A DNA stretch of 63,985 nucleotides, filler included, from Reclinomonas americana ATCC 50394 (GCA_048213135.1; 7 parts of 4 records of this genome joined end to end with filler, not necessarily neighbours in it), one strand, 5' to 3'; positions 8-59,528 are shown, numbered from the whole stretch's first letter. Numbers and translations are program-made. The notes: generated by a model not told the origin, from the sequence alone.

Positions 8-2514
8 ATGTCGCGTCGCAGCAGCCTTCCCGGTGGCGGTGGTGCGCCTCCTCCGTCACTTGGAGGCAACAGCAGCGTGACTGGACCGCGTCGTCCTCCA
101 GGAGCAAGTGAGTGATCGCCGCCTCACTTCGTCGCTGTGCTGTGTGTCTCAGACGCGTGCCGTTGTCCCAACTGCTCTCTCTCTCTCTCTCTCGCTGTGC
201 AAAAGGTCGTCCGCCCTCTGCGTCTGTGGGGGTTGGCGGTGGCGGTGGTGGCGGTGCTGGAGTACCGCCGCCAGTGGCCATCCGTCGCGGCCCTGGTGGA
301 GGAGTGATGGCAGGACCGTTCTCGGCCAAGCAGAAGCACCCGGCCGAGGAGAACATTGAGCAGGAGTACATTCACAACCTGCAGCAGCAGATCTACTTTT
401 ACGAGCTGGAGCTGCAGTTCTTGTTGCGTACGCCCTGCTCTCGTTGAAAGATCGCAGCGATCGGCGCTCACACGGTGATCGATCGGTGCAGGCGAGAAAA
501 GGGTCGCAGTCGAGGTGCGCCGCTCAAGTCACGAGGCACAGAGACTCGCGATGAGGTGGAACTGCGCGAGGCGGCGCCGCTGGAGGATGCGATGTACTCG
601 CTGAAGCAAAAGTACGTGGTGCAAGCGGAGGAGCATCGTCGCACCGTGGAGCAGCTGCGCAGGGAGAAGGAGGAGAGTGAGCGACACTCGGCGGCGATGA
701 CACAGGCGGTGCAGACGTTGGAGCGTCAAAAGACCACCATGGAGACGCAGCTGGGCACCGTGCGCGACACGCAGAACCTGCTGAAGGAGAACATGACGCA
801 TGAGGTGGGTGTGGCGTGACAGCAGTCCACGTGTTGACGAGGGCGATCGATACTCATTGAGTGGGCTGGGTGGGCTGGCGGTGTGTAGATTGTACAGTTG
901 CAGAAGATCATCGAGGCGCGCGATGAACAGATCCGAGCGTTGCAGACGCACATGGATCGGCTGAATGCGGAGAAGCAGGAGAACCTGACGGAGAGGGCGC
1001 AGGCGCAGGCGGAGAGGGAGGCACAGGCCGCAAGAGTTGCGCACGAGGCGAATGGTGACGGGGTGGTGCGTACTGCTCACTCTCTCGCTGTTGTGATGCA
1101 CAGTTGATGGAGACGAGTCGGGCACTGGAGGAGGCGCAACGACGAATCGCCGATTTCGAACGCGAGCAGACGTCGACACGTGCAACATTGGAGCGACTGC
1201 AGCGCAGCACACAGGCGACGCCCACGGNNNNNNNNNNNNNNNNNNNNCGGATTCGTGATCGAAGCGGCCAATTCAATCAGCTCGCGCAATACTCTGTCCC
1301 TCTCTGTCCCAGTCAATCAATCGCGCAAACAATGCTCCCGTCAGTCTCTCCGTCGCGGTCGTCTGCGGCGGCGACGGCGGCGGCGACAGGCAAAATGAGT
1401 CCACACAGTGCGCCTCCACATCAGCATGCGCGCGGTGGAAGTCCAACAGCTGCAAGGAGTGTGAGGTGAGTGCGCTGTCACCCTAATGTGTACCTCGATA
1501 TCACGCGACTGGCTTTTCACGCGCTTGCATGCACGCGCACACGCAGTCCGTCTGTCATACCGCGGCACAGCATTGCCACACGCGTGGCGCTGGGCGGTGG
1601 TGGTGGTGGTGGTGATGTGAGTCAGCGAGCGAACGAGCGGGGAGAGCGGGGGAATGCACCCATCGTCAGTTGTTGTTTGTCTCATCACCGGCACACGCAC
1701 ACAGTCGCCTGATCACGGCTCGCCAACACGAGGCATGATGCACGCGCTGCCGCAGCGAGTGACTGTCGAGGATGTGCAAGCGGAGGTACGGGGCCTCGCG
1801 TGTCTTGCCCTCTCCTGCGTCTCATCGCCTCATATCGGTGCATGCATGCATCACACACAGAGACACCGTTTGCGTCAGTATCTTGATGGCCCGGCGCTGT
1901 TGTCGCGACCGCGTGCGGGGTCGGTGCCAGAGACAACGACAACAGTGCAGTTGCCGCATGTGTTGCAGAGCTTGAATGTGGTGCCGCCGGCGAACGAGCG
2001 ACGGTCGGTGTCGCAGTCACCGGTTGCGGCGCGCAGTGCACTGAGGGCCATGGCTCCCGCACCGCTGGTGACAGCCTCGGGGCAGCTGCCGCCAATCAAC
2101 ACGGACGAGCCGGTGTCGCCGACCAGAGCGGTGGCGGCCATGATTGCCGCGCCACCGCCGCTGTCGCCGGCCATGCTGTCGCCGAGTCTGTCGCCGTCGT
2201 CGGCGGCCGCCGCGGCACGCATGGAGGCTTTTCGGCAGCAAAAGGTGGCGGTGGCACAGGAGCTGCGCAGTGTCGGCGGTGGCGGCGGTTTGTCGCCGGT
2301 GCGGAGGAGTCGCGAGGTGCTCGGGCGGGGTCGGCTCAGTGTGGAGCCGGCGTCGCCGAGTGGCGGCAGCGGCGGCAGTGGTCACCCGGACTCGCCGTCA
2401 CACAGCAAGACCGTGTACCCGGCATCGGCACCCGCCGCTCCGCCGCTCTCCGTCGACGGCTTCTCTGCGCAGCGCTTTGAGCGGATGCATGATCATGACG
2501 ACGATCGCGAGTGA
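8..2514 (+). CDS. Multi-exon coiled-coil protein with Pro/Ser-rich C-terminus, function unknown
   Basis: ATG at 8. GT-AG introns 108-205, 423-491, 805-888 and 1036-1103 join in frame: ...EQEYIHNLQQQIYFYELELQFL|REKG...NMTHE|IVQLQKII...AQAAR|LMETSRALEE. Heptad-rich. TGA at 2512-2514. A 20-N gap at 1228-1247 leaves the middle uncertain. Confidence 0.6.
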
Positions 2515-2642
2515 TATTTTTTGGGGATTGTGCGACATGTTGCTGCAATGCGCACTGTCGCCGTGTACGTTGTATAACAATCATGTGGTGGTGAGGAAAA
2601 TGATAATGCGTTCAAGATAAATGTAAAAAAAAGAAAAAAATG

Positions 2643-2649
2643 AAAAAAA
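2643..2649 (-). terminator. RNA polymerase III oligo-T terminator of the tRNA gene
   Basis: Run of 7 T on the minus strand about 15 nt downstream of the tRNA 3' end, with more T runs beyond. Confidence 0.7.
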
Positions 2650-2663
2650 TGGATTTGCAAAGA

Positions 2664-3130: not shown

Positions 3131-3161
<31 letters not shown>

Positions 3162-6100
3162 AGGAGAGGAGAGGAGAGAGAGAGGATNNNNNNNNNNNNN
3201 NNNNNNNNNNNNNNNNNNNNNNNNNNNNNNNNNNNNNNNNNNNNNNNNNNNNNNNNNNNNNNNNNNNNNNNNNNNNNNNNNNNNNNNNNNNNNNNNNNNN
3301 NNNNNNNNNNNNNNNNNNNNNNNNNNNNNNNNNNNNNNNNNNNNNNNNNNNNNNNNNNNNNNNNNNNNNNNNNNNNNNNNNNNNNNNNNNNNNNNNNNNN
3401 NNNNNNNNNNNNNNNNNNNNNNNNNNNNNNNNNNNNNNNNNNNNNNNNNNNNNNNNNNNNNNNNNNNNNNNNNNNNNNNNNNNNNNNNNNNNNNNNNNNN
3501 NNNNNNNNNNNNNNNNNNNNNNNNNNNNNNNNNNNNNNNNNNNNNNNNNNNNNNNNNNNNNNNNNNNNNNNNNNNNNNNNNNNNNNNNNNNNNNNNNNNN
3601 NNNNNNNNNNNNNNNNNNNNNNNNNNNNNNNNNNNNNNNNNNNNNNNNNNNNNNNNNNNNNNNNNNNNNNNNNNNNNNNNNNNNNNNNNNNNNNNNNNNN
3701 NNNNNNNNNNNNNNNNNNNNNNNNNNNNNNNNNNNNNNNNNNNNNNNNNNNNNNNNNNNNNNNNNNNNNNNNNNNNNNNNNNNNNNNNNNNNNNNNNNNN
3801 NNNNNNNNNNNNNNNNNNNNNNNNNNNNNNNNNNNNNNNNNNNNNNNNNNNNNNNNNNNNNNNNNNNNNNNNNNNNNNNNNNNNNNNNNNNNNNNNNNNN
3901 NNNNNNNNNNNNNNNNNNNNNNNNNNNNNNNNNNNNNNNNNNNNNNNNNNNNNNNNNNNNNNNNNNNNNNNNNNNNNNNNNNNNNNNNNNNNNNNNNNNN
4001 NNNNNNNNNNNNNNNNNNNNNNNNNNNNNNNNNNNNNNNNNNNNNNNNNNNNNNNNNNNNNNNNNNNNNNNNNNNNNNNNNNNNTGCTTCCCCTCCTGAG
4101 AGAGAGAGAGGCAGAGAAGCAACAACAACAAGAAGCTGCAGTCTTGCATCCGTTGCATTTCTCATTCCACTCTCTTCTTCCCTTCCCCTCTCTGCAGTCA
4201 CTGGAGACCTCCCGGCCCCTGTTCGTGCTCCACGATGGCCCACCATACGCCAATGGAAAGCTGCACACGGGGCATGCTGTGAACAAAATCCTGAAGGATA
4301 TCGTCGTGCGACATCGCCTCATGCGCGGCGATCGAGTGAGGTGTGAGGAGAGTGCTGCAAAGAGTGGCAGGCATGCAGCTGACTGAAGTGTCTTCTCATG
4401 CGACAGCTGGGTGTGCGGGTGGGACTGCCACGGCCTGCCCATCGAACTCAAGGCCATCAACGAGCGCAGCAGTCGGCAAATGAGCCCACTGGAGATTCGC
4501 TCCAGTGCGCGGGCGTTTGCGGGGGAGGCCATCAAGGATCAGGCGGCGGCATTTGCCGCGTGGGGCCTCCTCACCGACTGGAACGACGTGTACTTGACCA
4601 TGGATCCGGCGTATGAGGCCATGCAGCTGGATGTGTTTTGGCAAATGTTCAAGACCGGCTACTTGCATCGCGGGGTGCGGCCGGTCTATTGGAGTCCGAG
4701 TTCGCGCACGGCTCTGGCCGAGGCGGTGAGTCTCGAGGAATATAGAGAGTGTGTGTGTGTGGTCTTTCCCACTCACTTGTCGGCGTCGACACAGGAACTC
4801 GAGTACACGGATCAGCACGTGTCGACGTCGGCATATGTGTCGACACCAGTGGTGCGTGCGGACGGCGAGGCTGCTGCTGGTAGGTCAAGTGTCGGTGTAC
4901 ACATTCAATGCCATCCATCAACTGCATTCTTCCCCCGGCGCAGCTCTTCTCTCCCGCTTCCCGGGCCTGCAGATGGCTGTGTGGACCACCACACCGTGGA
5001 CCCTGCCGTCGAATCAGGTTTGCCGAGTGTCGCGCCACTGCTTCACCCACTTCCATTTCGGTTGATGACTGGTGCTTCTGCAGGCCATGTGTGTGCATCC
5101 GGAGCACGAATACTGCGTGGTGACAACTCCATCGTCGAATGTGCCACTGTTGTTGGGGGTCGAGCTGGTGGATCACGTCGCCAAGAGCGTGTTTGGTGGT
5201 GCCCCACTGCAAGTGGTCAGCGAGCCCATTTCCGGCACGCATCTGGCGAACCACATGTGGTGTGCGCACCCGTATTTCAGCACCACTGAAGTTACATGCT
5301 CATACACACGCAGGGGGTGTTTCAATTTCCCCTCCGTCTCACTCACGTACAAATTAGGTGCCGGTCTTGTCGGGGACGCACGTTACGAGTGACAGCGGCA
5401 CGGGCATTGTGCACACGGCGCCGGCGCACGGTCACGACGATTATGAAGTATGCAAGCAGTACGGAATTGAGCCGACGATGCGAGGTGTGGAGTTGAACGT
5501 GTCCACAATCTTGTGCCCTCATCTCATCCTCTCCGTTGCAGTGGACGATCTCGGTCTCTTCTGTCGTGGTACGGCTCCCGAGCTGGACGGCTTGGCCGTT
5601 CTGAAGGAGGGCAATGCGGCAGTGATTGAGAAGCTCAAGGCCGACGGACGCATTCTTGCCACCATGCCGTACCAGCATCGCTACCCCTACGACTGGCGGA
5701 CAAAGAAGCCCGTCATCATTCGTTCGACTCGTCAGTGGTTTGCACGCCTCTCTGATGGCTCTTCTGCGGGCGGACTGAAGGTGTGGACGGGGAGAGCGTG
5801 TGCGGATGATGTTGCGTTGCGTGCGCTCACGCGCTGCTTGTGTGTGTGTGTGCAGGATGCGGCCTCTCGTGTCGTGGAAGATGTGCAGTTTGTACCGCCG
5901 TCGTCTCGTGCACGTCTCGCTGGCATGCTTGGATCACGCTCTGAGTGGTGCATCTCACGTCAACGAGTGTGGGGTCTCCCCATTCCCGCATTTTACCACA
6001 AGGACACTGGTTTGTGCAGAAGCTGACGATGCGATTCCCCGACGCACACTCACTCTCAAATGCACTCTTTGCAGATGAGGTTCTGCTCGACGAATCAACC

Positions 6101-6242: not shown

Positions 6243-6287
<45 letters not shown>

Positions 6288-8065
6288 CGCAGCTGCCGAG
6301 TTTGAAAAAGGCAAAGACACACTCGATGTGTGGTTCGACTCTGGCACCTCGTGGGCCGGCGTTCTGCGCCAGCGCAACATTTTCCCGGCCGATGTGTACC
6401 TGGAGGGCAGCGATCAGCATCGCGGCTGGTTCCAGTCATCGTTGCTTACGTCGGGTGCGTTCCAGCAAGATCACGAAAAACCACGCAGATGGTGGTTGAC
6501 TCACTTTTTCTTCCCATGTCGCATGTCAGTGGCGTGCTCCGGTCAAGCTCCGTATCGTCGCCTGGTGACGCACGGTTTTGTGGTGGACTCGGAGGGGCGA
6601 AAGATGAGCAAGAGCATCGGCAACATTGTGGAGCCGCACGTTATTGTGCAAAAGTATTCGGCCGATGTGCTGCGCGGTTGGGTGGCATCGTCGGATTACA
6701 CGGCTGATGTGCCACTCGGCGAGCAGCTGCTCAGTTGCGTTCCCCATGATGTGCATTCTTTTGCTGCTGCTACCACAATACTCACGGCATCGTCTCGCAG
6801 AGCATGTGGCAGAGGGTGTGCGTAAAGTACGCAACACGTGCCGTTTCCTGCTCGGCAATCTGCACGACTTTGTGCCCCTGGCAGTCGAGGAGCCCATCAC
6901 TCATCCACACGATCGCTACATGTTGCACCTGCTGGGTGACTTTGCGCGGCACGTGCAAACCGAGTACGACGAGTATGCCTTTTCACGAGGTTTTGTACTC
7001 TGCAGTTGCCCAGCCTCACGTTGCACGTCGTCGTCGTCACTCATGAGGTGCGCGCAACAGTGTGGACGCGAGTCTCCATTTTTTCGGCGTCGACTCTCTC
7101 CGCATTCTACCTCGACCTGATCAAAGACCGCCTGTACGCCGACGCGCCACAAAGTCACTCGCGACGGAGCGCGCAGCGCGTGTGTGCCAAAGTTACGTGT
7201 TTGTCATATCGGTGTCATCACTGATGCCGTGGACCTCACCGCGGTGACCGACAGATTCTCGAGTACCTCACCAAGTCTGTAGCCCCACTGCTGCCGCACT
7301 TGGCCGAGGACGTGTACCAGCACTTGCCAGCCGGGGCACAGTGGTCAAAGAAGAGTGTCGAGTCCGTCTTCGAAACAGGCTGGATTGATGCGGTTTGTAA
7401 TTCCTGCAGTGGTCCTCTTGCCTTTGCCGTCTCGCTCACCCGCGACGCAGCCATCCGAGTGGACACTGGACGCCGACATGCTTGCCAAGTGGACCGCGGC
7501 ACTGCGACTGCGCGACGCCTTTTACACTGTCGTCGATGTGGCGCGCAAGAAGAAGTTGCGCTGTGTGCGATTTGTGAGTGCATCACTTTTTCGTGAGTCT
7601 TACTTTTGCATGCACAGATTCGTGGGCAACTCACTCGAGTGCATCATGGTGATTGCGGCATCGGATGCAGCCATTCTCGCCGAACTGAAGCTACTCGCCT
7701 CTGAGGTGAATCTGGCCGATGCCGCACTTGTCTCGTCGGTGGAGTTTGCGACAGAGCCGGCACTGACTGGCGAGTATGTGGCATCGATTCCGTGGGCGGC
7801 CGACGCGACTGGTTCGTTTCCATTTGTGTTGTCGTGATTGCGACGGTTGCCGATGTTCACGAGTGCACTCGCAGTGTCGGTTGCTCTCACTCGCTCGACA
7901 AAGCACAAGTGCCCGCGCTGCTGGAAGCATGTGGCAGTCAAGGGTGTGGCATATACAGTTCTCGCCGCAGGTCACTCTCTCCAGTCCACTCATTCTCCTT
8001 TCTATTTCACAGAGAACGAGCTGTGCGGACGCTGTGATGATGTGATGCGCTCGTGGAACCAGTGA
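2852..8065 (+). CDS. IARS2: Isoleucyl-tRNA synthetase, mitochondrial/bacterial type (about 20 exons)
   Basis: Spliced product has an Arg-rich presequence (MWRHLQRWRRLFS), [95 protein letters not shown] and a C-terminal Zn finger (KCPRCWK...LCGRC). An N gap at 3188-4084 lies in an intron-like region. Confidence 0.95.
6246..6284. repeat. Intronic (CT)n microsatellite
   Basis: Pure CT dinucleotide run inside an IleRS intron. Similar runs occur at 175-192 and 3130-3157. Confidence 0.95.
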
Positions 8066-8158: not shown

Positions 8159-10266
8159 TCACACCATCGGTCGCTCCTTGCGCGGTCGACCACGCGGTTT
8201 CTTTGGTGGGATTGCTGCTGTTGCTGTTGGGATGTTGGGAGTGGCGGTGGCGGCAGCATTCGGTTTCGCTCGTTTCTCGACGGGCTCCAGCAGAGTGCCG
8301 GCCCCATCTGCGATACGTGTCAGTCTTTCGTTGTTGCCAACATTCTGCGTCAACACTCGACTCCACGACACACCGTCGAGGGTACTCTCGGCCGTCTCCG
8401 TTGACAACAGTGGGAGCGCCAGTGCTTGTGTGAATGTGCGCTTGTGGCCTGCGCACAAATAGTGGTTGGGCCTGGGAACTTGCGAATATCGGAAAGCGTT
8501 CGTACCTGCTCCGAGTGACGTGCGACCGGTGCCCCACTGTGGAGCCACTGAACTGGGACCCATGATGACGCGTTGTGGCAGCGCATTGCTGCCGGGCTCG
8601 AGGCCTCCGAATCGCACGATTGGTCCGTTGCGCACCAGGGACGGGATGTGGGCCTGCGCGAAACAGTCAGGTTCTAGGTAACGGCGTGTGACCTTCGCTG
8701 TCGACGCAACTGTTTCCTCTACCACGCGCTGCGCGAATGTGAGAATGTCGGCTACTTGGCGGCGCGATTCAGCAATCGCTGTGCTCGGCAGGGAGCGCCA
8801 CAACGCTGGCAGCGGATATCTGTTGTCGAGCGGTCAGCCGACGGTTATGATTTCAAGACTCACATCCGACGCAACGTGTAGTGCTCATCTGCGCCCGGGA
8901 AGCGCACCTCCGCATATGCTGGCACTTGCTTGGGGAGATGCACTTGATACTGCGCAGGGAACATTGTTTGTAATCAGTCGCCGTATCCTGGACATTTCAA
9001 GGCTCACCTTGCTCTCCCAGTATGTTCGCACATCGTCGACAGCCCACGGCGCACGCGGAGCCTTGCCAATGCCGACAATCCAGCACTGCACATATGCAGA
9101 GAGAGTGGGGGTGATGAGGAAACGCGGCTGTGCATTCGTTGGCAACCTTTTGCGACGATTCACCACACTCATCATCGGCAGAGCGTAACACGCCCGCTCG
9201 ATATCGCCGTTGGTGGCGTAGGGACCGGAGATGCCCGGGTCATCAAAGTACAGCCAGTGGCCCTGGTCGAAGCGCTCGCGAAACGCGCGAGGCAGATTGA
9301 GGCTCTCCACCGTCACGGGCAGGGCGCGCTTGACGGTGGCCTCCAGTGGCCACATGACTTCGGTGCCGCCTGTGAGAACCGGTGGACACTGTGCGGCCGG
9401 TGTGGCTCTTCCATCAGTCTCAAGAGTGTCTTTTGTTGCCGTACACGCTCACCAGTCGAATCACTGGCGACAGAATCGGGGCGGCGCACGATTTCAGTCC
9501 GTCCGGGAGCTGGAAGAACTCGCAACCACCGGCGTCACCGGCCGACATTGGCAACCAGCAGCGACGGCGAAAGCCCTCGGCGACCATCTGGTACATGGCC
9601 TCGGCCAGCATGGCCGGCGGCACTTCGTTCTCCACGCTTCGCGATTCGCCGCCGTCCGCTGTCAGAGGCGCCACCAGTTGCACCAGCTGGTCAATACTGG
9701 TGCCACCGTCCTGGGTGTTTGGTTCGTGAGACAGTCGAGCAAGAAAGTGACGGAGAAGAGAAAGAAAGAGAGAGGTACCTTGTACAGCACGTGCAGCTGG
9801 TTGCTGGCGTCGACCAAATGCAACCAGTGCTCATCGGCGAGAGGCTGCTGTTTCACTTTGACCGACCACTCGTGTCAATCGTTCAACAACACCAACAACG
9901 AATGAAGTATGCAACGACCGAGATACCTCGCTGTTGCAGCGCACACAGAACCTCAGCTGGCGTGCGTGTCACGCAGGGGAGACTGGCGGCATGCGAGGTG
10001 CCACTTGAAGTGCCACCGCCATCAATCGGACCGACCGATTTCAGCGGCACCGAAAACATGCAAAGGTGGCCTCGTGCAGAATCGCCAGCAACACTCGGCG
10101 TATCTGCCAGTGACAGAGGTAATGCGCAGCGCAAGTGTGCCAGACAGACAGTCATCGTGTGTTTGGCAAAAGTGCCTCTGCTCCTCGAGTGGAAACAACA
10201 ACAACGAAGCACGGGACCAAGGACGCAGGACTCTTTCCATGCACACACACGCCACTGTCTCTGCAT
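8159..10266 (-). CDS. DUF4708/C18orf63-like protein with C-terminal AT-hook; start uncertain
   Basis: Spliced core ERACYALPMMSV|CWIVGIGKAP...DDVRTYWESK|YQVHLPKQVPAYAEVRFPG...HYT|YPLPALW matches the recalled C18orf63 pattern CYVLP...HW...YGYxLP...F...TYPL. Ends in KKPRGRPRK. Confidence 0.6.
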
Positions 10267-10390: not shown

Positions 10391-11472
10391 TCACGACTTG
10401 CCGAGGAAGCTGTACGGCGTGAGACCGCGGTTGAACCTCAAGTACGCGAACGCGAGGATGCACGCCACGCCAACGCCAGCCACCACAGCCTCAGTCCGCA
10501 TGCTGTTCATGTCCAAGCCGGGTTTCAGGCAGCTCACGGCCGGATCCGACGGCTGCATGCGAGTCAGACAGCAGACGCCCTCGTTGCTACCTCCCCACAG
10601 AGGATCGACTGCTCACCGAGTAATAGACACGCACGACCTTGCCTTCGGGAAACTCGTCAGCATCCTCCTGCCGGTTGCTCTCGCCCGCACGCACCGCCTC
10701 GCCCACATACACCACACCATCGACAACGTACTCGTACTGCACATTGGCACGGTGCTCACTGTAGAGGCCGGGTTAGTCGACGAGAGGCGACCTGCAGTGG
10801 GCCACACACACACACCACACGCAACATGATTCGTCGGCCGACGGCCTCGTACTTGAAGCTGGCGGTGATGATTCCCGGAGCCGACGGCCACGATGAGGAG
10901 CGCGTCGACTCAAACACGCGATACGCCGGGTACACCAGCAGGCCGAGTCCCGCAATCAGCCAGAAGAGGTTGGTCGACTCCTCCACGCCATAGTCCTGCA
11001 CACCACAAAGAGAGTGAGTGTGAGTGAGTGGGAACGATTGCTGTGAATGCAAGTGTGAGAGCGCACCCAGTCCAGGCGGCGAGCGTTGATGGCCTCCATG
11101 CTCTCAATGTCACCGCGCTTGTGGTGCGGCTTGGCCTCCACAATGCCCTTGTCACTGCATGCATGCATGCATGTGTGTGAGTGCGAGTGCGTGAAATGCG
11201 AGAGCATCTCTCTCTCATTGCTTGCACGCAACTCTTGCGGCTTTCCGCTGGACGCCGGTGGCGATGATGGTGGTGGAGGCTCAGTGGAGAAGGTGCGCAC
11301 AGCAGCAAAGGTGCCGCGCGGAGCGGTCGCGCAGAGACGAGCACCGACTGTGTGCATCATCAGTGAGCGGCCGCACACACACACACACGCTCTATTGTGT
11401 GTTGGCACATGAGAGAGGGACGCAACGCGACAGCAGACTGCCTGCAGAACGCACTCGCAGCGCTCCCAGCAT
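10391..11472 (-). CDS. DUF3592-like two-TM membrane protein with mitochondrial-like presequence (6 exons)
   Basis: MLGALRVRSAGSLLSLGARLCATAPRGTFAAVRTFST, then a TM (LFWLIAGLGLLVYPAY), SSSWPSAPGII, ANVQYEYVVDGVVYVG, FPEGKVVRVYYSPSDPAVSCL and a second TM. TGA at 10391-10393. Confidence 0.7.
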
Positions 11473-11503: not shown

Positions 11504-12791
11504 TCACTGGGACTTCTTGCTGTCCTCCTTGCGCTTGAGACGACGGTTGCGCACGCCCTGCATGACGCTGAGCGACCTCTGCAGCAGCGTCTTGGTCGGC
11601 AGCAGGCTGGAGATGTACTCGATAATGTTATGGCGCCACGCTGGCGACACGCTCACGTCGCGACCGACACGAGCGAGGGTCTCGCGCACAAAGCGATGCG
11701 CCGACACGGTGAAGCCACGCTCGCTGCGGAAGCCGCTCATGCTCGAGGCCACAAAGTACGGCTTGGAGCACATGATCGTCACGCCATCGCGACGGTACCT
11801 GCAGGCTAGAGGTCAGACAAACGACGACGAACAACAAACGACGTGCTCGAATGCTATGCAACTCCTCGCTCATGGCAGTCGACCAGTTATCGATGAACGA
11901 CTTGGTGGCACCGTAGACGGCCATCAGCGGCACCGGGAAGGTGCCAGAGAAGGAGCCGAGGTTGACAATCAGGCCCTGTCATGCACACAAAAACATCAGC
12001 ATCACATTTCTCCGATCGCACTTTGTGTGTGCGTGCGTGTTGTCTCCGCACCAAGCGATTCTCAATCATCTTCGGCAGCACCAGCGACGTCATGCGCAGC
12101 ATCGAGTTGATGTTGACGCGCACGACCGACTCGGACACCTCAATCGCCTGCTCCACATAGCGCTCGGGCGTCTCGGTTGAGTTGATGCCGACATTGTTGA
12201 CGAGAATGGTCACTTGCTTGCCACGCAGTGCGGCCTCAATGGGCGGGTACACGCGATCGTCGGGCTGCGCAAAGTCCACCGCCACCGTCTCCACCTTGAT
12301 CGACGGCGCCTGCTTGCTCAACTCCGCGGCCAGGGCGTCCAACTTGGACGCCGTGCGGCTCACCAGCAGCAGGTTGATGCCGCGGCTGGCCAGCACCTCT
12401 GCAAAGCCTTTGCCAATGCCATCGCTGGCACCCGTGATCACTGCGCGTGTGCATGCGCGCAAGTGTGGGTTCGGAGTTTACACGTGTGCAAGTGATGTGC
12501 ATGTGCACGAACCGGCCCACTTTCCGGCGCCCACGTACTTCTTCAGGCTGACTGGCGGGCGGACAAAGCTGTTGAACAGCCACACTGCAGGCGGAGGAGC
12601 AGGCAGCAGAGAGGCAGAGAGGTAGACGGGCGGGGAGAGGTGTGAGACATTTTCGCTGACCACTCTCACGCGCTCGATCTGTCACACGCACCCAGCAGCT
12701 TGGCGGCGAACACGAAGACGGTGAAGAGACCGACAAAGAGCACAAGGCGACCGACCGTCGAGCCCTCAATGAAGCCAAGCGCCGCGAGCAT
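11504..12791 (-). CDS. Very-long-chain 3-oxoacyl-CoA reductase (SDR; KCR/HSD17B12/Ifa38 family)
   Basis: N-terminal TM, KWAVITGASDGIGKGFA, ILVNNVG, catalytic YGATK, KPYFVASSMS. Four in-frame GT-AG introns. Confidence 0.9.
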
Positions 12792-12924: not shown

Positions 12925-14011
12925 ATGGTGAGCAGGCGCGCGCCTGACGATTGCGCATAAGAGAGTGTGTGTGTGTCAGAGTGATGGCCCCGCATGTTTC
13001 TGTCCTCTTTTCCTCTGCACACGCACGCACGCTCTGCTCAACCGCCGCTGACTGTGTTGCGTTGCAGGGTATGTCCGGAGTTGAGGCCAACCAGGAGTGC
13101 GTGTCGCAGTTCGCTCGTGTGCGCGCACGAGAGCTCGCCTACGTCATTTTCACTGTGCACATGGAGAACAACCAGGTGAGAGAAGAGAGCGAGAGGAGAG
13201 ACAGTGTGAGCATGTGTGTGGGGGAGGGAGAGAGAGTGAGCGGTGGAGAGAGAGAGAGGCGTGTGTGTCAACAGACATGCTCGGAGAAAAGCACACGCAC
13301 TCTTTTCTCGTTTTTTTGCACGTCGGGGGTCGCGTGTGTTGCGTTGCGTCTCTCGCTGGCCTCTGTGCGCGTTCTCTGACGACTTGTTCACGTCTTGGTG
13401 TGTGAGTTTTTTGGCGTGTGATGTCGCGTCTGGCGGGCCCTCCTCGGTTATTTGTGTGTGCGTGTCTGCCTTTGTGTGTGTGTGTGTTAGCATCAGACAG
13501 TAGTGTCCGCCTTTTTTGTCTTGTCGACGAATGATGAGGGTGTTGGATTTTGTTTGTATGTGAAGCAAGGACATGGCCTCAATATACTCACTCGCTTCTC
13601 CTCTGCAGCCCAAGGACATCCGCCCGGTTGCCGAGGGTGTGCAGGGCGAGTCGCCCGAGGCCACCTGGGACGAGTTCGTCGCCCAGCTGCCGCGCAATGA
13701 GGGCCGCTTTGGCGTGTTTGACCTGCGCAAGCAGACGGCCGATGGTCGTCAGGTGGAGAAGGTCATCTTCGTCACATGGTGAGTCCGGCTCTTCATTCAC
13801 TCGCACTGTTGTCCGCCCCGTATCGCTCATGTTGTCGTCTCGACTGTATAGGGCGCCGTCAGAGGCGTCGGTGCGCAACCGCATGATTGTCGCCTCGTCG
13901 CAGGATGCACTGAAGGCCAAGTTCGACGCTGCTGGCATGCCGCACGTGCAGGCCAACGACGCCGACGAGTTGGTGTACTCGACGGTGGTCGCCAAGGTCA
14001 TCCGCGAGTAA
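12925..14011 (+). CDS. Actin-depolymerizing factor / cofilin
   Basis: ATG-only first exon, then GMSGVEANQEC...YVIF, WDEFVAQLPRNEGRFGVFD, KVIFVTW|APSEASVRNRMIVASSQDALK, VQANDADEL. TAA at 14009-14011. Confidence 0.9.
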
Positions 14012-14219: not shown

Positions 14220-16058
14220 CTATCCGTCGACGGGCAGCGAGCCGTCGAACCACCACGTCTTGACGAGGCGATCGTCGCTGCATGAGGCGAGTTCGGAGCG
14301 CTTCGAGTGGAACACGGCTGAATACACGATGCCGGTGTGACCCGACAGGCGTTGCAGCGGGGTCTGTCCGCCGGAGCGCAGATCCCACACGTACACATGC
14401 CCGTCCTCGCTGCCGCCAAACACCAAGTCGGCGGGACCAAAGGTGGCGCGCACAAAGTTCTTTGACGTGTTCTGGTGTCCCTTCAGTCGCCGCACTGGTC
14501 GTGACTGCCAAAGCGCGCGAGTGTGCGTGGGTGAGCGCTCAACTGTCAGCAATGGCAAGAGAGTGTGTGATGGCGCAACTGTACGAATATCCCACACGCG
14601 ATTCGAGTTGTCCTTGCTGGAGGAGAGCACCGTGTTGCCGAGCGAATTCATGTCGACCGATGTCACCTCGCCCAAGTGAGCCGTGTACGAGTGGATGCAC
14701 ATGGCGCTGGTGATGTCCCAGAAGCGAATGGTGGAGTCCTTGGAGCCAGAGATGATGAGGTTGCCGTGCGGGTTGAAAATGACCTTGCACACCGAGCCCG
14801 TGTGCCCGATGAGATGCTTCACCAACTCGCCCGTCTGAATGTCAAACAGCTTGACGGTCTTGTCGTAGCCGCCAGTCGCAAAATGTCTCTGAGAAGGGAA
14901 GAAGGATGTGAGGAGAGATCAACGAGTAACACAGTTGTTTCGGCGCACACACACACACCTCCGAAGGATGCACGCGAACACAATACACGTCGGTCTCATG
15001 ACACGCATGCGTCACCACCGAGCTCAGCTTTGGTGACGACGAGTCCGTGTCCGCGAGTGACCACACCTGCACCGCAACATTGTCGGAAATCACCTCTCGA
15101 ACAGCCCACCAAGTGCGCCTCTCACCTTGACGTGCCCGTCGGCACTTGCACTGGCCAACAGCGACCCGGTGCGTGGGGCCACAGACAGGTCCCACACGCG
15201 CGACTCGTGCCCCTCGAGCACAAGGCGACAGTCGCCGCTGGCCGTGTCCCACAGGCGCACCGTGTTGTCGCTGGAGCCCGACGCCAGCAGATTGCCGTGC
15301 TCGCCCACAAACTCCACACACTTGACATTGGCGCGATGGCCGACCATCGAGTGCCGCACGCTGTTGGGAATCACCGGGCACGAGTAGTCCTCCAACAAGC
15401 TGACAGAACGAGAACATGAGCAAGTGAGGACAGAGAGAGGGAGAGTGAGGGATGAACGGCGAACCTCGATACTTGCGGAATGGTCTTCGGGTGGTACTTG
15501 GACGAGGAGACCTGGTAAGCCACGGCCTGTTTCAGCAATTGCACCAGTCGTGCGGGAGGCACTTGCTTGGACGACGCTGCACGCCCATTGCATCCTCACA
15601 GTCAGTCTGAGTGGAGATCATCGCCTCGCGACACACTCGTTCACGCACCGACAGTGAGATCCTCGCTCTCATAATCGAGCATCGACTCGAACTGCTCGAC
15701 GAGCGCCTCACGCGACGATCCCAACACGCCATCCCACTGCCGCCGGAACACTGGTGAATCAGCCACGCTCTTGCACGTGAGCAAGTAGCACAGCTCCTTG
15801 AACTCGTTGGGGTACTGCTCGGCCGTCTCCAGTGGCTTCAGCTTGCGATTGAGAATGCCCAGCGCCTTCAGATGCTCGCCCGACTCCACCAGCTCCAAGA
15901 ACTGCTGCTTGTAGATGCAGTAGAGGAAGCTCTTTTCGTTGTGGAAGCGTGCCTGTTACGTCAACGACGAGCTGTCAGCAGCAGCGAGCGAAGCGGAGAA
16001 GCGCACTACGAGCACAGCACCTTGTTGATGTTGCGCTCCACCTCTGCCCAGTCACCCT
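14220..16058 (-). CDS. CTLH + WD40-repeat protein (WDR47/WDR26/SMU1-like architecture), 5' end missing at the gap
   Basis: GDWAEVE...FLYCIYKQQFLELVE...ELCYLL, PARLVQLLKQAVAYQ, then about 7 GH...WD repeats (for example GHRANVKCVEF...SDNTVRLWD and GHTGSVCKV...DSTIRFWD). Confidence 0.8.
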
Positions 16059-16289
16059 CTGTGACGCGTGGAAAGCAGAGGAGGTCAGCTCAGAGAGGGC
16101 CACTCTTGCACAGCGCTCTGCCTTTCTCGAGGATGAATGCTGCGCTTTCAGTCTGATCTCCTCTTCCTTCTTCGTCTTGTTGTTGATCCTTCTTCCTCTC
16201 TACTCCTCTTCTTCGCCTTCTCCTTCTTCTTCTTCTTCTTCTTCTNNNNNNNNNNNNNNNNNNNNNNNNNNNNNNNNNNNNNNNNNNNN

Positions 16290-16301: not shown

Positions 16302-16345
16302 NNNNNNNNNNNNNNNNNNNNNNNNNNNNNNNNNNNNNNNNNNNN

Positions 16346-30184: not shown

Positions 30185-30844
30185 TTACGTGTCGTACACG
30201 CTGACCGCGTTGGACCTGTTCACCAGAAAATGGAGTGAGTCGACAGGAAATGTGGCGAGAGAGCGAGAGAGTGCACGCAAGCGTACCGCTGGAAGAATCG
30301 GAACGACGGAGTGATAATGGACAGGAATCCATCGACCGTCTGGTCGCTCAACAGCACAGCCAGCCGCAACTGAGTACCACGCAGCAATTGCGAGGAAAAA
30401 AAGTGAGCACATTACTGGGAACAGGAAAAAACATGGCCACACGCACCTGCGGGCAGCGTGCACGCTTCCGCTTGCCGAGCTTGAACTTGACAAGCAGAGA
30501 GATCTGCCCCTGCTGCGTCGCAGCATCGAGCTCCACCAACTCGGCCTCGTTGGCAATTACTGGTTCGTCCTCAGCTAATCGAAAAAAACCAAGTGAGTCG
30601 CCTCGCATTGGTATTGTCGGGTGAAGATTTGGCGACGAAACTGCTGAGCAGCGGATCAGCTGGGTTGGTGAGCACCTGCGCCTCCAGGATCGGCTCTGGT
30701 GCACTGCGTTAACACCGTATGTTCAGCTTTTTTCAGACAGAAACGGGAGTTGCGCACAATGACAGCTTCCGCAACATCCACTCCAGCGGCTTCAGTGCCA
30801 GTGCCAGCGACTGCACGACGAGCCCACGGTTCGGCATCACCAAT
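30185..30844 (-). CDS. Uncharacterised multi-exon protein, 3' part
   Basis: Plausible in-frame splice path ...AEDEPVIANEAELVELDAATQQGQISLLVKFKLGKRKRARCPQ|TVDGFLSIITPSFRFFQ|RSNAVSVYDT-TAA. No recognised domain. Confidence 0.4.
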
Positions 30845-48348: not shown

Positions 48349-49976
48349 TGTGTGCTCTCGTTCGCAGTCAGTCGCTCGCTCACCGCTTGTTGCTGTTGCT
48401 GCAGCATCGCCGATGGCTGCGCGTTTGCGTACGACGAGCCGCTCTTGAAAGTCGTGGAGATTACGTGGTCGACAGAGAGCGACGAGGCAGAGGAGAGGGT
48501 GCGAGTGGCAACCATGTTGGCGCATCGAGCGGCTGCGTTGCGCGATGGAGATCAGATTCTTGGCGCTCTTGCGCACTCGCCGGCGACCTTGGCACATCTG
48601 GAGGCTGTGGTCGAGCGGGTGAGCACGCAGGCCGCTCAGCAAATGTCGGCCGACGATGTTGTTGCGCTGGTCAACGCAGCCGCGCCGCCGGCGGGTGGTA
48701 AGCGCGACGAGAGTGACAGCGATGTGGACAAGGACGACGCTGGAGAGGAGGACGACGATGACGACGACGATGGCGCTGGCGCGGGCGGTGCGAGTGGGGC
48801 CGGTGGTGAAGATGGCGACGAGTTTGACGAGTCGTACTTTTTGACCGACCGTGAGCGCCGGAAGAAGGAGCGAGCGGGTCCTCGTGGAAAGGGAAAGGCC
48901 GCAGGCAACACCGCAGCTGCGGCGGGCAAGAAGAAGCAGAAGGTAGAGAAGCGCAAGGGCGGCCGCGCGTCGTCCTCGTCGGCCGGCAGTGGAAGCGTGT
49001 CGCAGCAGAACTCAACTGAGAGCGAAGTGGTGCGGTGTTGCCTTTCTTCGGTTCTGCAAGCTGCCTGGTCGTGTTGTGTATTTGACCCTTTCTTTGTGCG
49101 CAGAAAAATACTATTGTGCCAGTGACATTGACACTGACGGCGTACGATCCCGACGTGTCGGTGGACAAGGTCTGCGTGCGCGTATCCTCGGCGTGGAGGC
49201 GATCGGGAACTTACCGCTTGTTGCGACGCAGACATTCACGTGCTACGTGCTGGAGAATCGTGTTCGAGTCGTGACACAGCGGCACGAGCATCTGTTGCTG
49301 CTGGGCACACCCATGAACATTGGTGGCCATGTGCTGGATCCGGATGATGAGGGTCCGTCGCCGCCCATGCATATCAACAAGGAAATGCTGCTGAGTATGG
49401 CTGGTCTGGTGGCTCACTATGCCGGACAGCAAGTCGGAAACATGCCACCATCAGTCACCGCCGCCTGCCGTATCGATGTTGCAGTGGTGCGTATGTGTAT
49501 GTGAGAGAGAAGCGGGAGCAAAGGCTGCTCTCTTCTCGACACACCAGGGAGCTCACTGCACGCTTCTGCGTGCACACAGATTCCACACATCAAGCAGCAC
49601 AAGCTGTCGTTTGATCCCGTGATTGTGGACGTCAGGATGTTGACTGTTGCGTATGTGTGCCTCGCTTCCCCTGCCCAGGACACGAGTGTTGATGCTGTCG
49701 CTTTGTGCGCATGCAGGCTGCAGACATGGCCGTGATGCATTCGCCACCTGTGGGTGTGGAGCTGTTCACACCGCAGCCCGAGGCCGATGGACCACCGCCA
49801 TGTTGAGTGACTTGTCGCTGTGTGTGCGGCCTGCTACTTCACTTCATCTCATATGTTCACATCGCGCAGTTACCGTGCGGATCCGAGCGCAGTCGCTCAC
49901 CGAAGCGTCGGCCCACGACATCCTCAACGTTCTCCCGTACGCCTATTTCGACAAGCTGGCCGACTTTGCCAAGAGA
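48349..49976 (+). CDS. Uncharacterised multi-exon protein fragment with acidic and Lys-rich tracts
   Basis: Open coding-like frames (DEPLLKVVEI..., EEDDDDDDD, KKKQKVEKRK, ...ILNVLPYAYFDKLADFAKR) joined by short GT-AG introns. Bounded by gaps. Confidence 0.5.
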
Positions 49977-51889: not shown

Positions 51890-54843
51890 CAAGTCCGTGG
51901 ATGAGTGCACTCGTCACACGAGCTCACCATTCGCGAAGCGTCTCGCTCGAATGCGGAGAGCGCCAGCGTGACGTGCAGTGTGCGCAGTAGGTCGGCAGGG
52001 AAGCAACCGCCAATCACAATTACCAGCTCGTACAGGCGAGTCTTGCTCAGGATGCGCGGACACTGGCCCGGCGCCTCGTGTGCATCGAGGACGGAACGCA
52101 GGCATTCGACATAGAGCGGAATGCGCCGCGCGTGCTGGCTCTCGTGGCAGGTGAAGGTGAAACTGGAGCTGTTCCAGAAGCTGCGAGAGAAACGGGGTGC
52201 GGTGACAACGTGTACATGGGCAAGAGGGGGTGTGCAGTCAGGATACATAAACGCAACGCGCGGTAGTTCTGCTCGTGAAATTGTTGCAGCGTGGCAGCAT
52301 ACGCTTGGCCGCTCTCGCGTTCCGCTCGAGTCGACATATCGCGAGCCAGCTTCCCCAGAGCGATATCGTCGGCGGCGTGTGCCTCGATGAGCGTCGGGAT
52401 CACCTTGCCGAAAGTCAGCAACTTGTAAAAGTTGCGCAGCACAAATGTCGAGGCCTGCGCATGGCACACAATGAGCAGCAGACAGCGAGGTTAACCGCAA
52501 CTGCAACATCATGCGCACGCACTCGACGCAGGTTATCCGGATCTGCCAGACTGATGCCAAAGGCCCAGTGCAATATTGTCGTACCTGCACATGCACACAG
52601 TTGTTGGCATCGTTCTTGGGACAGCAGAGAGAATCGAGAGCACCAACGAAACTGAACACGGTGGACATGAAGCGGCTTCGACGCAAATTGGTGATCAGCT
52701 TGTTGAGGAGCCACGCTCGTTCCTGTATGCATCACAGCAGTCAACAGACGACAGTCTTGATGGCACAAGCTTCTCAATCACCAACCAAAGCGAGGGTTGT
52801 TGCCTGCACCAGATTGTCGCTGCCAATGCGCCACACCAGCGATGTGTTGCGGTTGACCAGCAACACGGCCGGTGGCAAGCGTCGTGTGTTCTGATTCATG
52901 TGTCGCGCCTCCGGCACAATTATGATCGGATGCCACTGCTCTTCTCCTGTGCGGAGAATGGCGTGGTCAGCACACTGAGAGAACAAAGATGCCGCTCTGC
53001 AAGAACTCACTGGTTTTGAGAGCGTCTGCATCCTGCTCCAGTGGCTTCTGTGGTTCGTCCAGATCCCTCGCGTCGAGATGCAAGTGCAAGCGCTGCACCT
53101 GTGCAGTAGCACGACCGCGAGATGCCGGCAGCTGCGGCGAAGCAAACACGGTGGTTTCCGAGGGCGTCAGAGTCGGTGTTGGCACGACAGTTGTCGGGGT
53201 GGCTGCGACTGCGTGCGCGACGCCATCGGCGTTGGTGTTGGTGGCGGCAGTGGCAGTGGCAGTGGTGGGGGTAGTAGTAGTTGTTACAGCTGTGGACGCG
53301 GTGGCGGTGGCGGTGGCGGCGGCGGTGGCGGGTACAGTTGGGCGTCGCTCCGGTCGTCGGCCAGAGAGAAGGCCTACGCTGGCCTGTGGCGGTGCGTGGA
53401 TATCCATGCCGAACTCGAACGACGACGGGGGTGCCAGCAACTCGCGATCGGGGTGTGCATGGCCGACGGGTGGCGAGTACACCACAAACTGCGACGTTGC
53501 AGTGCGCGGCGACGAGACGGCTGTTGTCGACAAGTCGCGATACACAAACTCGAACGAGGTATCACGCGAGAGCACCAGCACGAGCGAGTCCATTGTGTTT
53601 GCACCGGCACTGTTGGCTCCTGGCGACCACACTTGACCCTGACCTGCAGGCAGGAGCATAGATGAATCACTCACAGCATCACCAGAGAGAGCGTATGTGC
53701 GCTCGTTGCTCACCGCTTTTGAATCGAAAGAGTGGAGGTGTGGAGGCAGCCGGTGATGGCATGTCAGTTGTCGAGTACCGCACTCCTCCTCCTCCGGATC
53801 CTCCTCCTTCACCCCCTGCTGCTGCTGTCGTTGCCGCCGCCGCCGCCGCCGCCGTTGCTGCCGCCAACGCTGTGGCTGCCACTGCGGCATTGAAGGTGCT
53901 GTCGCCGACACTCGAGCTTGCACGGTCACCGACGACGTCATCTCGATCATCTCCGTCACATTCGTCGCGTGCGCTGCCACCGTGAAAGTCTTCGTCGTGG
54001 ATCAGTCCGTCATCTGCGCGACCGCTGTCGATGGAGAGCCGGCCACTCGATTCCTCCCCCTGCTCCTCCCCATGGTCTTCCTCGCCGAATGCCGCGTCTC
54101 CTCCGACGCCACTGCCCGTATGGAAGAAGCAGGAGCGCGGGCGACTGCTGCGAGTGATGTGAGTACACCACGAGAACATCACTTCCCACACGCTGACGCA
54201 ACACTTCCACCCTGCTGTTGTTGTTGTGGTTCTGCCGCTTGACCGCCGGCTGAAATTCGTCCCCGAGGTCGAGGACGGAAGGGTGGCCTGCGACTTCCGT
54301 CGCACTGCCGTCGGCAACGTTGGAGAACAGTCGCTTCAGGGCACCCTGTGGATGGTGTCGAACAAACTACGAACACGCATGAAACCGGACGGGATTGGTC
54401 GGTATTCTGGTCCGAAAAAGGCACTTTCGACTCACATGTTCCGCCAGGCGCGATGTCGCCTCAGCCAGTGGCGACTCGATCTCTGGCGCGCCACACACAG
54501 GGACAGCATCCGCCTGGTCACCATCCACGGCGGCCGCGGATGGCGCGACAGTGCGCGAATGATCCTTGCCGATCGCCCGCCTGTCGACACATTGGCGACA
54601 TGCAAACCCCCCGAAACAAACACACGGACGATGAGCACGCAACTCTGCTTCACAACCCGTCGTGTGATCACCACCACCAACTACGAGGCACGCACACACA
54701 CACGCCATTCGCAACACCACAGTCAGCAGGAAAATCGAACAGGCGAGTGTGATCAAAGTGCCCGCACCATCATCCAGCGCGCATTCAGCGACCTCTGCCT
54801 CTCCTTCTCCACCTCCTCCTCGTCGTCCTCCAGCGCAAGACTT
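51890..54843 (-). CDS. Uncharacterised low-complexity multi-exon protein, ends in gaps
   Basis: In-frame splice path through ...SRLAEH|GALKRLFS..., poly-Ala/Thr tracts, EEQWHPIIIVP and FVLRNFYKLL. No domain recognised. Confidence 0.5.
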
Positions 54844-57182: not shown

Positions 57183-57600
57183 TTGTCGTTGCTGTGTCGC
57201 ACGCGCGCTGCTTTCTCTTGTGATGCTCTCTTCCGCTCTTCACGCTCTCGAATGATCACACACACGTTTGTCCGTGACAAATGGCGCGCGAGCGCTCCCG
57301 CAAAAAACACACTTTACTTTCGCGTTTGCACCGCCAGAGGTATGCTTCAATTGCTCCTCACACACACACACACTTTCGCGCGCTCTCCCTTTCTCGCGCT
57401 CTTTGCATGCTGTTGTGCACACACACACGCGCATGTGAAATGTTTTTTGTGTGTGCATGTTGTGCACTTTCCTCTTGTGGCGCGGGAATAACGTCATCGC
57501 ATGTCATGCATCCGAGAGAGACTCTCTCTTTCTCTCTTTTCTCTTTTCTCTTTTCTCTCTTTCTCCGCCTCTCTCACACGTGTGTGCGCACACAGGAGAG

Positions 57601-59528
57601 ATGACCGCTCAGCAGCAGCGGCTGAGTGAGCTCGATGGTCCCTCGCCGCTGTCCTCTCCGCGCTCCTCCGGAGGCGGCGGCGGCGGTGGCAGTGGCGACC
57701 TGCAGTTGCGTCCTTGCCTTCACACACTTCCGTGTCACGCTCGCCGATTCTCACTGACAGTGGGAGGAGCAGGGAGTTGAGTCAAGTGAGCTTGTCGTCC
57801 ATGGGCTCGTTTCTCAGCGGCAAGCGACCGGTGACCCGCATGCACATTGACGGAGTGGACCTGCTGAGTGACTCGCCACCCTCTTCCTCGTCAATGCTGA
57901 TGGGGTCGGCGTCACCACCGCCGCCACCTCCACCACCAGCCGCAGCACCGGCGCGCCTGTCACCTGCTGCGCACTTGGATGACGACGATGGCCACCACCA
58001 CGACGACGACGACGTCGGTGACGACATTGATGAGGGGAAACACGATCCCGCCATGAGGCGAGCCTACGAGATGCTGGCGCGCACGAGTAGCCAGAGCTCC
58101 CAGCCGATGGCGTCACACAAGCGGGAGAGTGCAGCTCGGCAGGCACTGTCGTACGCGCCGACCATTCCAGTGTACTCGTCCGAGGAAGAGGACGACGGGG
58201 TGAGTGATGGAGAGGGCGTTCTCCGCTCCGGAGCACAGGGCAAGCACAAGACGACGCGCGGCAACGCACGCCATCGCATGTCGTTCACTCTCGACTCCTT
58301 GGCCGCCTCTGTTGCGTTTTTCGAGCAGCTCATCTCGTTTCCTACATTCTCCTCACTCCCTCGCAGGCGTTGCAGAATCAGAATCAGTACTCTTCCGGAT
58401 TCATGGTCGATGTCGACATTGGCGACGACGACGATGACGATGAGGATGATGACGATGATGACGACAACGGCCCCAAGGGCGGTTGCGGTGACCATGACAC
58501 GATGATGCATGAGGCGGGGGCGGGCGCATTCGATAATCGCCACTCGCCAACCTTCTGCTTGGGCTCAGTGGCGGGGCTCGGGTCGCTTGGCGAGTATTTC
58601 GATCACATTCCTGAGATGAGGTACCATCGCCGAACGGCTTCCTCGCTGTCGGCGTCCTCTGGCGCCGGCATGACCACCGCCACCACGCCGGCTGCGGGTG
58701 CTTCGGCAAGTCAGCCTGATGTGGCTCACGGCGTGGTGGGCTCGTCGGTGAACCCGCTGACACCGCAAGCCGGTTTCACCTTCCCCAATCCGTTCGCGCC
58801 GACCGCGGCACCCGTTTTTCCCACCATGTCCGCTTCGTCTTCGTCGTCGTCAGCAGCAGCGACAGCGGCAGCAGTGGCTGTAGCGGGTGGCAGGGGTGGC
58901 GGTGGCAAGAGCAGCAGCAGTGGCAGTCTCCTGGACCGGTTGGCCACGGTGGCAGTTGCCGCACAGAAACAGCGGCCCTCGGCCAAGGCCGTTCGCGGCG
59001 GCGCACCTGCCGGCCGGCACGGAGGACGGGGTGCTCTGCTTGTCGAGGATGACGATGACGACGACGACGACGATGACTCCGGGTACAGCGAGGGGGATTC
59101 TGACGACGACGACGACGACGACGACGATGAGGATGAGCAGGGGATGAAAGCGGATGACGACGACGATATTGTCGACGACGGCGACGAGGATGACGATGAC
59201 GACTCGGATTACCGCGGAGGCAGACGGCACACGAAGAAGCGAACGACGCCGCGTGGAAAGGCGGTAGCCGCCACTGCTGCTTCTGTTGGTGCCGCCGCCA
59301 CCGGCGCTGGTGGTGGTGGCAAGCGAGGAAAGAAGGGCTCCACTCAGGCGCGAGTGTCGATCGCGTCCTTGGAGCCGCCACGGGGAAAAACGCGACTTCG
59401 TGGCCGGCCCAGCAAGTCCACGGCAACGACAACAACAGTGCACAATGGCGACATTAGCAAGGCCGTGCGCGCTGCCGCGGTCAGCTCGCCGCCGGACAAG
59501 TCGCAGTCGTCGAAAAAGACGGCCAAGT
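57601..59528 (+). CDS. Acidic, low-complexity, probably nuclear protein, 3' end in gap
   Basis: ATG at 57601. Introns starting at 57705 and 58311 keep the frame. Poly-Asp tracts, basic clusters and RGRPSK. Confidence 0.6.

Follow-up and report, generated by a model that had tools for sequence, protein, structure and literature searches.

The window analysed here, a stretch of 63,985 nucleotides from Reclinomonas americana, is GC-rich (about 0.58, leaving aside 4966 masked N) with short introns at high density, and it raises the question of whether these introns are defined by one or by two kinds of 5' splice site. A preliminary description of this DNA proposed that introns following an exon-terminal G mostly carry a G at intron position +5, while many of those following A, C or T start with GTTGCGT or a close variant, that is, with the same consensus moved one base downstream. 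In the following, +1 is the first intron base, −1 the last exon base, and a slash marks the exon–intron border. Our data indicate that this second donor class is real, that it is used as donor, and that it goes with a non-G exon end in introns that are otherwise ordinary. In addition, we consider it probable that the window holds two 5' splice-site architectures of the GT-AG major type, the second of which would be recognised one base displaced.

All 34 donors named in the preliminary description were checked at their coordinates and carry a GTT-type motif after A, C or T. Specifically, the base at −1 is A in 17, T in 9 and C in 8 of these described sites, and G in none. The heptamer is GTTGCGT at 22 sites, GTTGCGC at three, GTTGCAT, GTTGAGT and GTTTCGT at two each, and GTTACGT, GTTACAT and GTTGCGG at one each; the statement that +6 is usually G holds for most of them, an exception being the site at 5291 (GTTACAT), with A at this position. 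Counted on both strands, GTTGCGT occurs 34 times in the window, against 15.93 ± 3.95 in 100 dinucleotide-preserving shuffles (maximum 27; none of the 100 reaches 34). The base preceding these 34 copies is A (13), T (12) or C (9), never G.

Introns were called with a gene finder of our own, a generalised hidden Markov model (HMM). Its coding component is three-periodic and was trained on the window itself; introns are modelled explicitly as GT..AG, junctions are checked for stop codons arising across them, and acceptors are scored with a matrix, with a bonus for a CTNAY branch motif and a prior on length. An early pass with flat signals and no acceptor model had returned 64 introns, many of them long and false, and the model was refined accordingly. 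Two versions were used: in the donor-blind model all GT dinucleotides are scored alike, so that the donor motif plays no role, and in the mixture model a two-component donor score is applied to positions +3 to +8 only, which leaves −1 as an unbiased read-out. Introns of 40–130 nucleotides (nt) were counted as short introns.

The donor-blind model returned 148 short introns, of which 85 carry G at +5, 26 belong to the second class (here, T at +3 and G at +6 but not at +5) and 37 are of other types. An exon-terminal G precedes 72 of the 85 +5G donors versus 2 of the 26 second-class donors (Fisher test, 6.3e-13); when a giant repeat gene, described below, is left out, the figures are 43/54 and 2/22 (p = 1.2e-8). 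A comparable result was obtained with the mixture model, whose 140 short introns comprise 97 +5G donors, 33 second-class donors and 10 others, with exon-terminal G in 80/97 versus 2/33 (Fisher test, 1.8e-15) and, without the repeat gene, in 50/65 versus 2/29 (p = 9e-11). The second-class introns of this model follow A (14), T (9), C (8) or G (2), the two cases with G, at 6990 and 58482, being each atypical; G at −1 is thus observed twice, against 8.75 of 29 expected from codon-position composition (P = 0.002). Within the window, therefore, the −1 base covaries with donor type as had been proposed, the second class being nearly confined to non-G exon ends, and donors after an exon-terminal G are, as stated, mostly of the +5G type. 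The proposed share of a fifth to a quarter of introns also agrees with both counts (26/148 donor-blind, 33/140 mixture; 18–24%).

The reverse combination, G/GTTGCG, had been reported as missing, and we found no credible donor of this kind in the window. The lone candidate, at 58482, is probably no intron, since the 87-nt stretch is open in frame and shows no evident CTNAY, and the other six GGTTGCG copies are exonic or antisense to genes. The few exceptions after a non-G base had been described as perfect GTGAGT donors. This is correct for 108 (plus strand) and for 43803, 53010 and 54435 (minus strand), which all read N/GTGAGT, but GTGCGT is also used after a non-G base with G at +5; together, N/GUGAGU and N/GUGCGU are scarce, making up about 7 of the 17 listed donors that combine a non-G exon end with +5G.

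Could these sites merely reflect how donors were picked, with the genuine ones being nearby ordinary G/GTNNG sites and GTTGCGT enriched for an unrelated reason? Some of the described sites had been picked among alternatives, six of them found no support in our analysis, and a donor model with a single matrix recovered 17 of the 34, replacing the others with nearby GTGTGT-type sites. The class is recovered, nevertheless, by a model in which the donor motif has no role: 19 of the 34 described sites are found by the donor-blind model and 27 by the mixture model, and 28 are supported in total when the site at 7192, missed by both models, is added on the basis of IleRS homology. GTTGCGT is the commonest donor heptamer of the donor-blind set (16 of 148 short introns), and its copies serve as donors far more often than GT sites in general (16/34 versus 161/8251; odds ratio 49, p = 3e-19); 23 of the 34 copies act as sense-strand donors in the gene models. 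Given the acceptor, no in-frame alternative GT lies within 45 nt of the donor for 7 of the 33 second-class introns, and none with +5G for 20 of the 33. The class is spread over 15 of the 22 gene models.

Single junctions were also assayed by homology, using profile HMMs for IleRS (the mitochondrial-type isoleucyl-tRNA synthetase), SMU1 and KCR (the very-long-chain ketoacyl-CoA reductase). Each frame-open GT..AG pair was scored with the donor sequence ignored. Across the 19 junctions scored, A/GUU(G/A)C(G/A)U ranks top at five, and these are exactly the five described sites. On the plus strand, within IleRS, they are the introns 5291–5357 (GTTACAT after A; top of 33 GT..AG candidates, 71.9 versus 47.2 bits), 6734–6800 (GTTGCGT after A; top of 19, 77.3 versus 71.1 bits, with no in-frame GT alternative within 45 nt) and 7192–7254 (GTTACGT after A; top of 35, 90.1 versus 78.2 bits). 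In the last case, the runner-up is C/GTGTGTG at 7180, which both gene models preferred. On the minus strand, they are the SMU1 intron 14505–14579 (GTTGCGC after A; top of 29, 162.2 bits versus 145.2 for the next different donor) and the KCR intron 11799–11862 (GTTGCAT after A; top of 39, 94.4 versus 81.4 bits). The errors of the single-matrix gene model include 7180 in IleRS and 14597 in SMU1. Homology favours the described site at all five testable junctions, 7192 over 7180 and 14579 over 14597 included. Thirteen of the other 14 junctions have G at −1, 11 of these with +5G, and one is a tie (6210 versus 6204). Margins are small at 4880 (2.3 bits) and 14958 (1.2 bits). The best protein matches are spread across Amoebozoa, fungi and animals, with identities below 50% for IleRS and of at most 58% for SMU1. 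At the five sites the N/GT junction is fixed by the GT-AG rule, frame and homology, although a one-base slide of both intron ends may be compatible with the DNA. In conclusion, the reading of these sites as a donor-choice artefact is largely refuted, and we regard it as very unlikely.

The second class is far more uniform than the ordinary one. Among the 43 mixture-set donors lacking +5G, T stands at +3 in 37, G at +4 in 32, C at +5 in 36, G at +6 in 36 and T at +7 in 38 cases; the 97 ordinary (+5G) donors are looser at the matching positions, with G at +3 in 54, C at +4 in 31 and T at +6 in 56. At +3, where most eukaryotes have a purine, the ordinary donors rarely use A (6/97), with G, T and C all in use, and +4 is T, C or A. 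A changed U1 or U6 interface may lie behind this scarcity of A at +3. In all other respects the two classes look alike: median intron length is 68 nt in the second class and 70 nt in the ordinary one, GC content is 0.55 and 0.53, and in either class CTNAY is found some 20 nt before the 3' end, which reads YAG (GCAG or ACAG in the second class). Judged by eye, no shared sequence beyond +7 was recognisable among the 33 second-class introns.

Since the introns are otherwise ordinary and share nothing beyond +7, the second class is neither U12-type nor an introner family. U12-type introns have an RTATCCTT donor and a branch site resembling TCCTTAAC near the 3' end. Like them, the class described here is a minority with a far more rigid 5' splice site, and U12 is a precedent for a dedicated small nuclear RNA (snRNA); a U12-type assignment was rejected on the donor, which is not RTATCCTT, the CTNAY branch, and the branch distance and 3' end, which are those of the majority class. 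According to the introner reading, the heptamer would have been inherited from one family of mobile introns with the 5' end GTTGCGT, and a young family of this kind would indeed show such a sharp motif at the end of many introns alike in length. This origin is highly improbable in our view: the 33 introns share only positions +1 to +7, while in length, GC, branch motif and 3' end they are like ordinary introns, and four of them are paralogous to G/GT introns at the same position of the repeat gene. These four donors lie at an exon end (..SE/xNV..) where sister repeats carry GAAG/GT; because the exon end is the same, the donor type has changed in place between paralogous introns.

The classes also differ in phase. 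Outside the repeat gene, the second class is enriched in phase 2 (12/29, against 9/65 in the ordinary class; p = 0.006) and depleted in phase 0 (6/29 against 36/65; p = 0.002). Therefore, the class is found where the last exon base is codon position 1 or 2 and cannot freely be G.

Taken together, the common architecture reads (A)AG/GUNNGU, with G at −1 and +5, and the second reads N/GUU(G/A/U)C(G/A)U, with GUUGCGU as its modal form and the usual +5/+6 G and U found at +6/+7. In the reading that we favour, the register would be displaced by one base: G+1 would replace the exon-terminal G, U+3 would replace U+2, and G+6 and U+7 would replace G+5 and U+6, cleavage still taking place before GU. 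Such a register would relieve the last exon base from being G, which would lead to the observed excess at codon positions 1 and 2, and its reader might be ordinary U1, a variant U1, or U6 or U5 with proteins. The exon side is consistent with this scheme. At −1, the second class has a composition (A.40, T.27, C.24, G.08) similar to that of ordinary donors at −2 (A.34, T.32, C.17, G.17) and unlike that of ordinary donors at −1 (G.75). Over three exon columns, the log-likelihood is −117.0 for the shifted, −154.3 for the unshifted and −121.2 for the codon-position background model. In conclusion, the mechanism put forward in the preliminary description is plausible in outline, one test with a standard U1 speaking against its simplest form. 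The G and T signals lie one base further in, with a −1 position resembling the ordinary −2; pairing with the human U1 end is predicted to be weak in every register.

A number of points weigh against two architectures read in a displaced register. The sample is small, 59 kb of readable sequence from one region, and the junctions were placed at the DNA level, by our own gene models, homology at 19 junctions, and GT-AG and frame logic. The mixture model was seeded with both donor classes and its counts lean towards them, so that the donor-blind counts are the safer, conservative ones; many of the 37 donors of other types in the donor-blind set are probably miscalls. Six of the 34 described sites (1036, 9915, 47065, 52501, 54202 and 54643) are without support, lying in weak coding signal or within dropped gene models. 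The shifted exon columns beat the codon-position background by just 4.2 log units. The C at +5 (36/43) would be a mismatch to U1 in the shifted register. It would also be mismatched to the ACAGA box of U6; the conserved C at +5 fits neither U1 nor U6 as usually conserved. The standard U1 5' end is ACUUACCU. Duplexes were predicted with the human sequence of this end, AUACUUACCUG (PMC4856993), taken as conserved here, where it may differ. On this assumption, second-class donors are predicted to pair weakly in any register, with a mean of −1.5 kcal/mol, against −6.4 kcal/mol for ordinary donors, and with the same human end RNAduplex picks the register with G+1:C9 and G+6:C4 for 3 of the 33.

A bulged register is another way to accommodate the extra base. 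U1, and then U6, would pair in the ordinary way, with G+1 opposite C8 and one U of +2/+3 bulged out; GU-U-GCGU is indeed the modal ordinary donor GUGCGU with one U added, and the +2/+3 register is documented for human sites in Tan et al. (2016, PMC4856993; Figure 1C legend and Table 3). The −1 position speaks against a simple U-bulge of this kind, since it would face C9 of U1, favouring G: this base occupies −1 in 75–82% of ordinary donors, but in just 2 of the 33 second-class donors, below the 8.75 of the background. Moreover, a base other than U could be bulged out, whereas T occupies +3 in 37 of the 43 donors. As an account of the class, the bulge therefore appears quite unlikely to us. Single donors may nevertheless use it. 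Two donors supported by homology have G at −1 and no G at +5, namely G/GTTTTGT at 6990 (plus strand), which as G/GUUUUGU resembles a bulged G/GUUUGU, and G/GTGCTGT at 16020 (minus strand). A third donor with G at −1 and no +5G is G/GTATTTT at 26844 (minus strand). All three resemble an ordinary donor in which an additional base precedes the G, which makes them candidates for genuine bulge pairing.

The rigidity of the heptamer raises a further possibility, a dedicated variant snRNA (a U1 paralogue or other small RNA) with an ACGCAAC-like 5' end complementary to GUUGCGU, so that two parallel recognition particles would serve one major spliceosome. A different guide would account for the C at +5 and for the weak pairing with standard U1, and the counts at +4 to +7 given above are far stricter than those of the ordinary donor. 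Against this, a guide reaching one base further and placing a C opposite −1 should select for G at −1, contrary to observation; branch site, length and 3' end are alike in the two classes; and a scan of the window at Rfam gathering thresholds revealed no snRNA gene, its sole match being one tRNA. We regard such an RNA as possible but doubtful. The broader proposal of a second dedicated 5' splice-site reader for about a quarter of introns, specific to N/GUUGCGU and consisting of either a variant U1-like snRNA or a remodelled U1/U6 interface, is in our opinion decidedly doubtful. If there were such a reader, an exon-terminal G would not be required and introns could sit at codon positions barred to the ordinary donor; recognition of the 5' site would then exist in a third form, next to U1 and U11.

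How does the displaced register that we favour compare with known systems? A U1 register shifted by +1 has been described at atypical human 5' splice sites (Roca and Krainer 2009, as reported in Tan et al. 2016, PMC4856993). As far as that account goes, the second class resembles these sites in keeping GU at +1/+2, in having neither −1G nor +5G, in having the downstream consensus one base deeper, and in placing G+1 where the exon-terminal G would be. Its match to the canonical register is poor (−1G in 2/33; C at +5 in 36 of the 43 donors without +5G). It differs in that it makes up 18–24% of the window introns, and in that the moved consensus is GCGU here and AAGU(AU) in the human sites, so that the helix with standard U1 is interrupted and predicted to be weak. 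The human bulge +2/+3 register is used by 68 of 201,541 sites, and all validated noncanonical registers together by 1.5% (Roca et al. 2012, as tabulated in Tan et al. 2016, PMC4856993). Like those bulge sites, the class has GUU followed by the ordinary +3 to +6 signal one base late; unlike them, it is frequent (26/148 to 33/140, versus 68/201,541) and avoids G at −1.

Donors have also been divided into exon-leaning AG//GUNNN and intron-leaning NN//GURAG sites (Open Biol 2025, PMC11732430; also 2022, PMC9803359; LUC7 classes, PMC11842720). As in that split, exon-end and intron signals are anti-correlated in the window, with the Fisher values given above. Unlike AG//GUNNN, however, the exon-leaning class here keeps +5G in 80 of the 86 donors that follow G, and unlike NN//GURAG, the intron-leaning class reads GUU-RCRU, one base out. 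A at +4 is not favoured among the ordinary donors (24/97). In the literature searched by motif and by shifted-register terms we found no description of a GUUGCGU-type donor class, although a genome paper elsewhere could mention it. What differs here is an intron-leaning class one base out of register, with a rigid heptamer of its own and a share of 18–24% of the window introns.

If the pattern holds genome-wide, one noncanonical architecture would serve a fifth to a quarter of introns, to be compared with the human 1.5% for all validated noncanonical registers (PMC4856993). If true, it would provide a natural system for studying cleavage-site choice with an out-of-register helix and the reader of +4 to +7, and would also test whether a freed last exon base alters where introns persist; the phase bias points that way. 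In practical terms, gene finders with a single donor matrix misplace second-class junctions, as they did here at 17 of 34 sites.

The remaining second-class introns of the window are distributed as follows. On the plus strand, five described introns were returned by both the donor-blind and the mixture model: 423–491 (GTTGCGT after T), 7555–7617 in IleRS (GTTGCGC after A), which lies outside the profile coverage and has no in-frame alternative GT, 49802–49869 (GTTGAGT after T), again with no in-frame alternative GT, 57705–57772 (GTTGCGT after A) and 58311–58366 (GTTGCGT after T), also with no such alternative. On the minus strand, both models returned the described GTTGCGT introns 8820–8875 (after C), 37112–37189 (after C, no in-frame alternative GT), 41625–41689 (after A) and 44045–44108 (after C, no in-frame alternative GT). 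Six further described introns on this strand were found by the mixture model only, namely 32186–32246 (GTTTCGT after T), 33216–33304 (GTTGCGT after T), 33460–33532 (GTTGCGT after C), 40877–40932 (GTTTCGT after A), 43562–43643 (GTTGCGT after A) and 52181–52257 (GTTGCGT after C). For the described minus-strand donor at 41342–41348 (GTTGCGT after A) the acceptor is uncertain, as the mixture model gives a 342-nt intron, beyond the usual range.

Five second-class introns were absent from the preliminary description. Three of them, all on the minus strand, were returned by both models: 30575–30641 (GTTTCGT after A, no in-frame alternative GT), 36958–37033 (GTTGCGT after A) and 52585–52652 (GTTTCGT after A). 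The minus-strand intron 8654–8710 (GTTGCGT after A) was returned by the mixture model only, and the same model gave the plus-strand intron 49646–49716 (GTTGCGT after T), where the donor-blind model took T/GTGTGCC at 49655.

The KCR reading frame stops near 11506 (minus strand, 11506–11515), ending in ..KRKEDSKKSQ*. This C-terminus, ..KKSQ*, is of the dilysine type expected for a reductase of the endoplasmic reticulum membrane. A gene-model intron at 11507, fusing KCR to the next gene, was rejected as false. Of the described sites, only the one at 11862 lies in the KCR coding sequence; since the frame ends near 11506, those at 11426, 11232 and 10825 lie beyond the KCR end and belong to what follows downstream. 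The corresponding minus-strand introns, each GTTGCGT and returned by both models, are 11348–11426 (after C), 11155–11232 (after A) and 10759–10825 (after T). The gene previously labelled WD40 (14220–16245, minus strand) is the orthologue of the spliceosomal protein SMU1, with 53–58% identity over a 232-residue exon to proteins named SMU1 in fungi and Amoebozoa; an N run truncates the gene at its 5' end.

The giant gene (16346–29587, minus strand) contains 38 or more Ig-like repeats in tandem (two of its open reading frame pieces match Pfam Big_9). One repeat of about 92 residues corresponds to one exon of about 276 nt, with phase-1 introns of 60–78 nt between exons; the gene is broken by an N run at 23444–23543 and runs into N at both ends. 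Its roughly 38 introns are paralogous, which is the reason why the tests above are also given without it. The four described introns in this gene, all GTTGCGT at a homologous exon end and all returned by both models, are 16425–16490 and 16770–16837 (after A), 18169–18242 (after T) and 21310–21374 (after C).

Orthologous introns of relatives were sought in metagenomes. The scan with the repeat-gene exon gave 598 pattern matches, none of them confirmed; the scan with the SMU1 exon gave 49 loci, the best at 53% identity and none close enough for intron comparison.

The window contains 23 N runs, for example at 16246–16289 and 16302–16345; several genes are cut by them and gene models are limited accordingly. 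The runs include eight pairs of 44 bases, with exactly 12 readable bases between partners, and longer masked blocks of 448–897 bases. A tRNA-Arg (CCT) gene lies at 2664–2735 on the minus strand, between an upstream gene model and the earliest exon recognisable as IleRS. Finally, the heptamer also occurs as two tandem overlapping copies, GTTGCGTTGCGT, at 5811–5822 and at 13338–13349 (both plus strand), which may be cryptic or alternative donors; the former sits within the ordinary IleRS intron 5781–5855 and the latter upstream of a cofilin-like gene.

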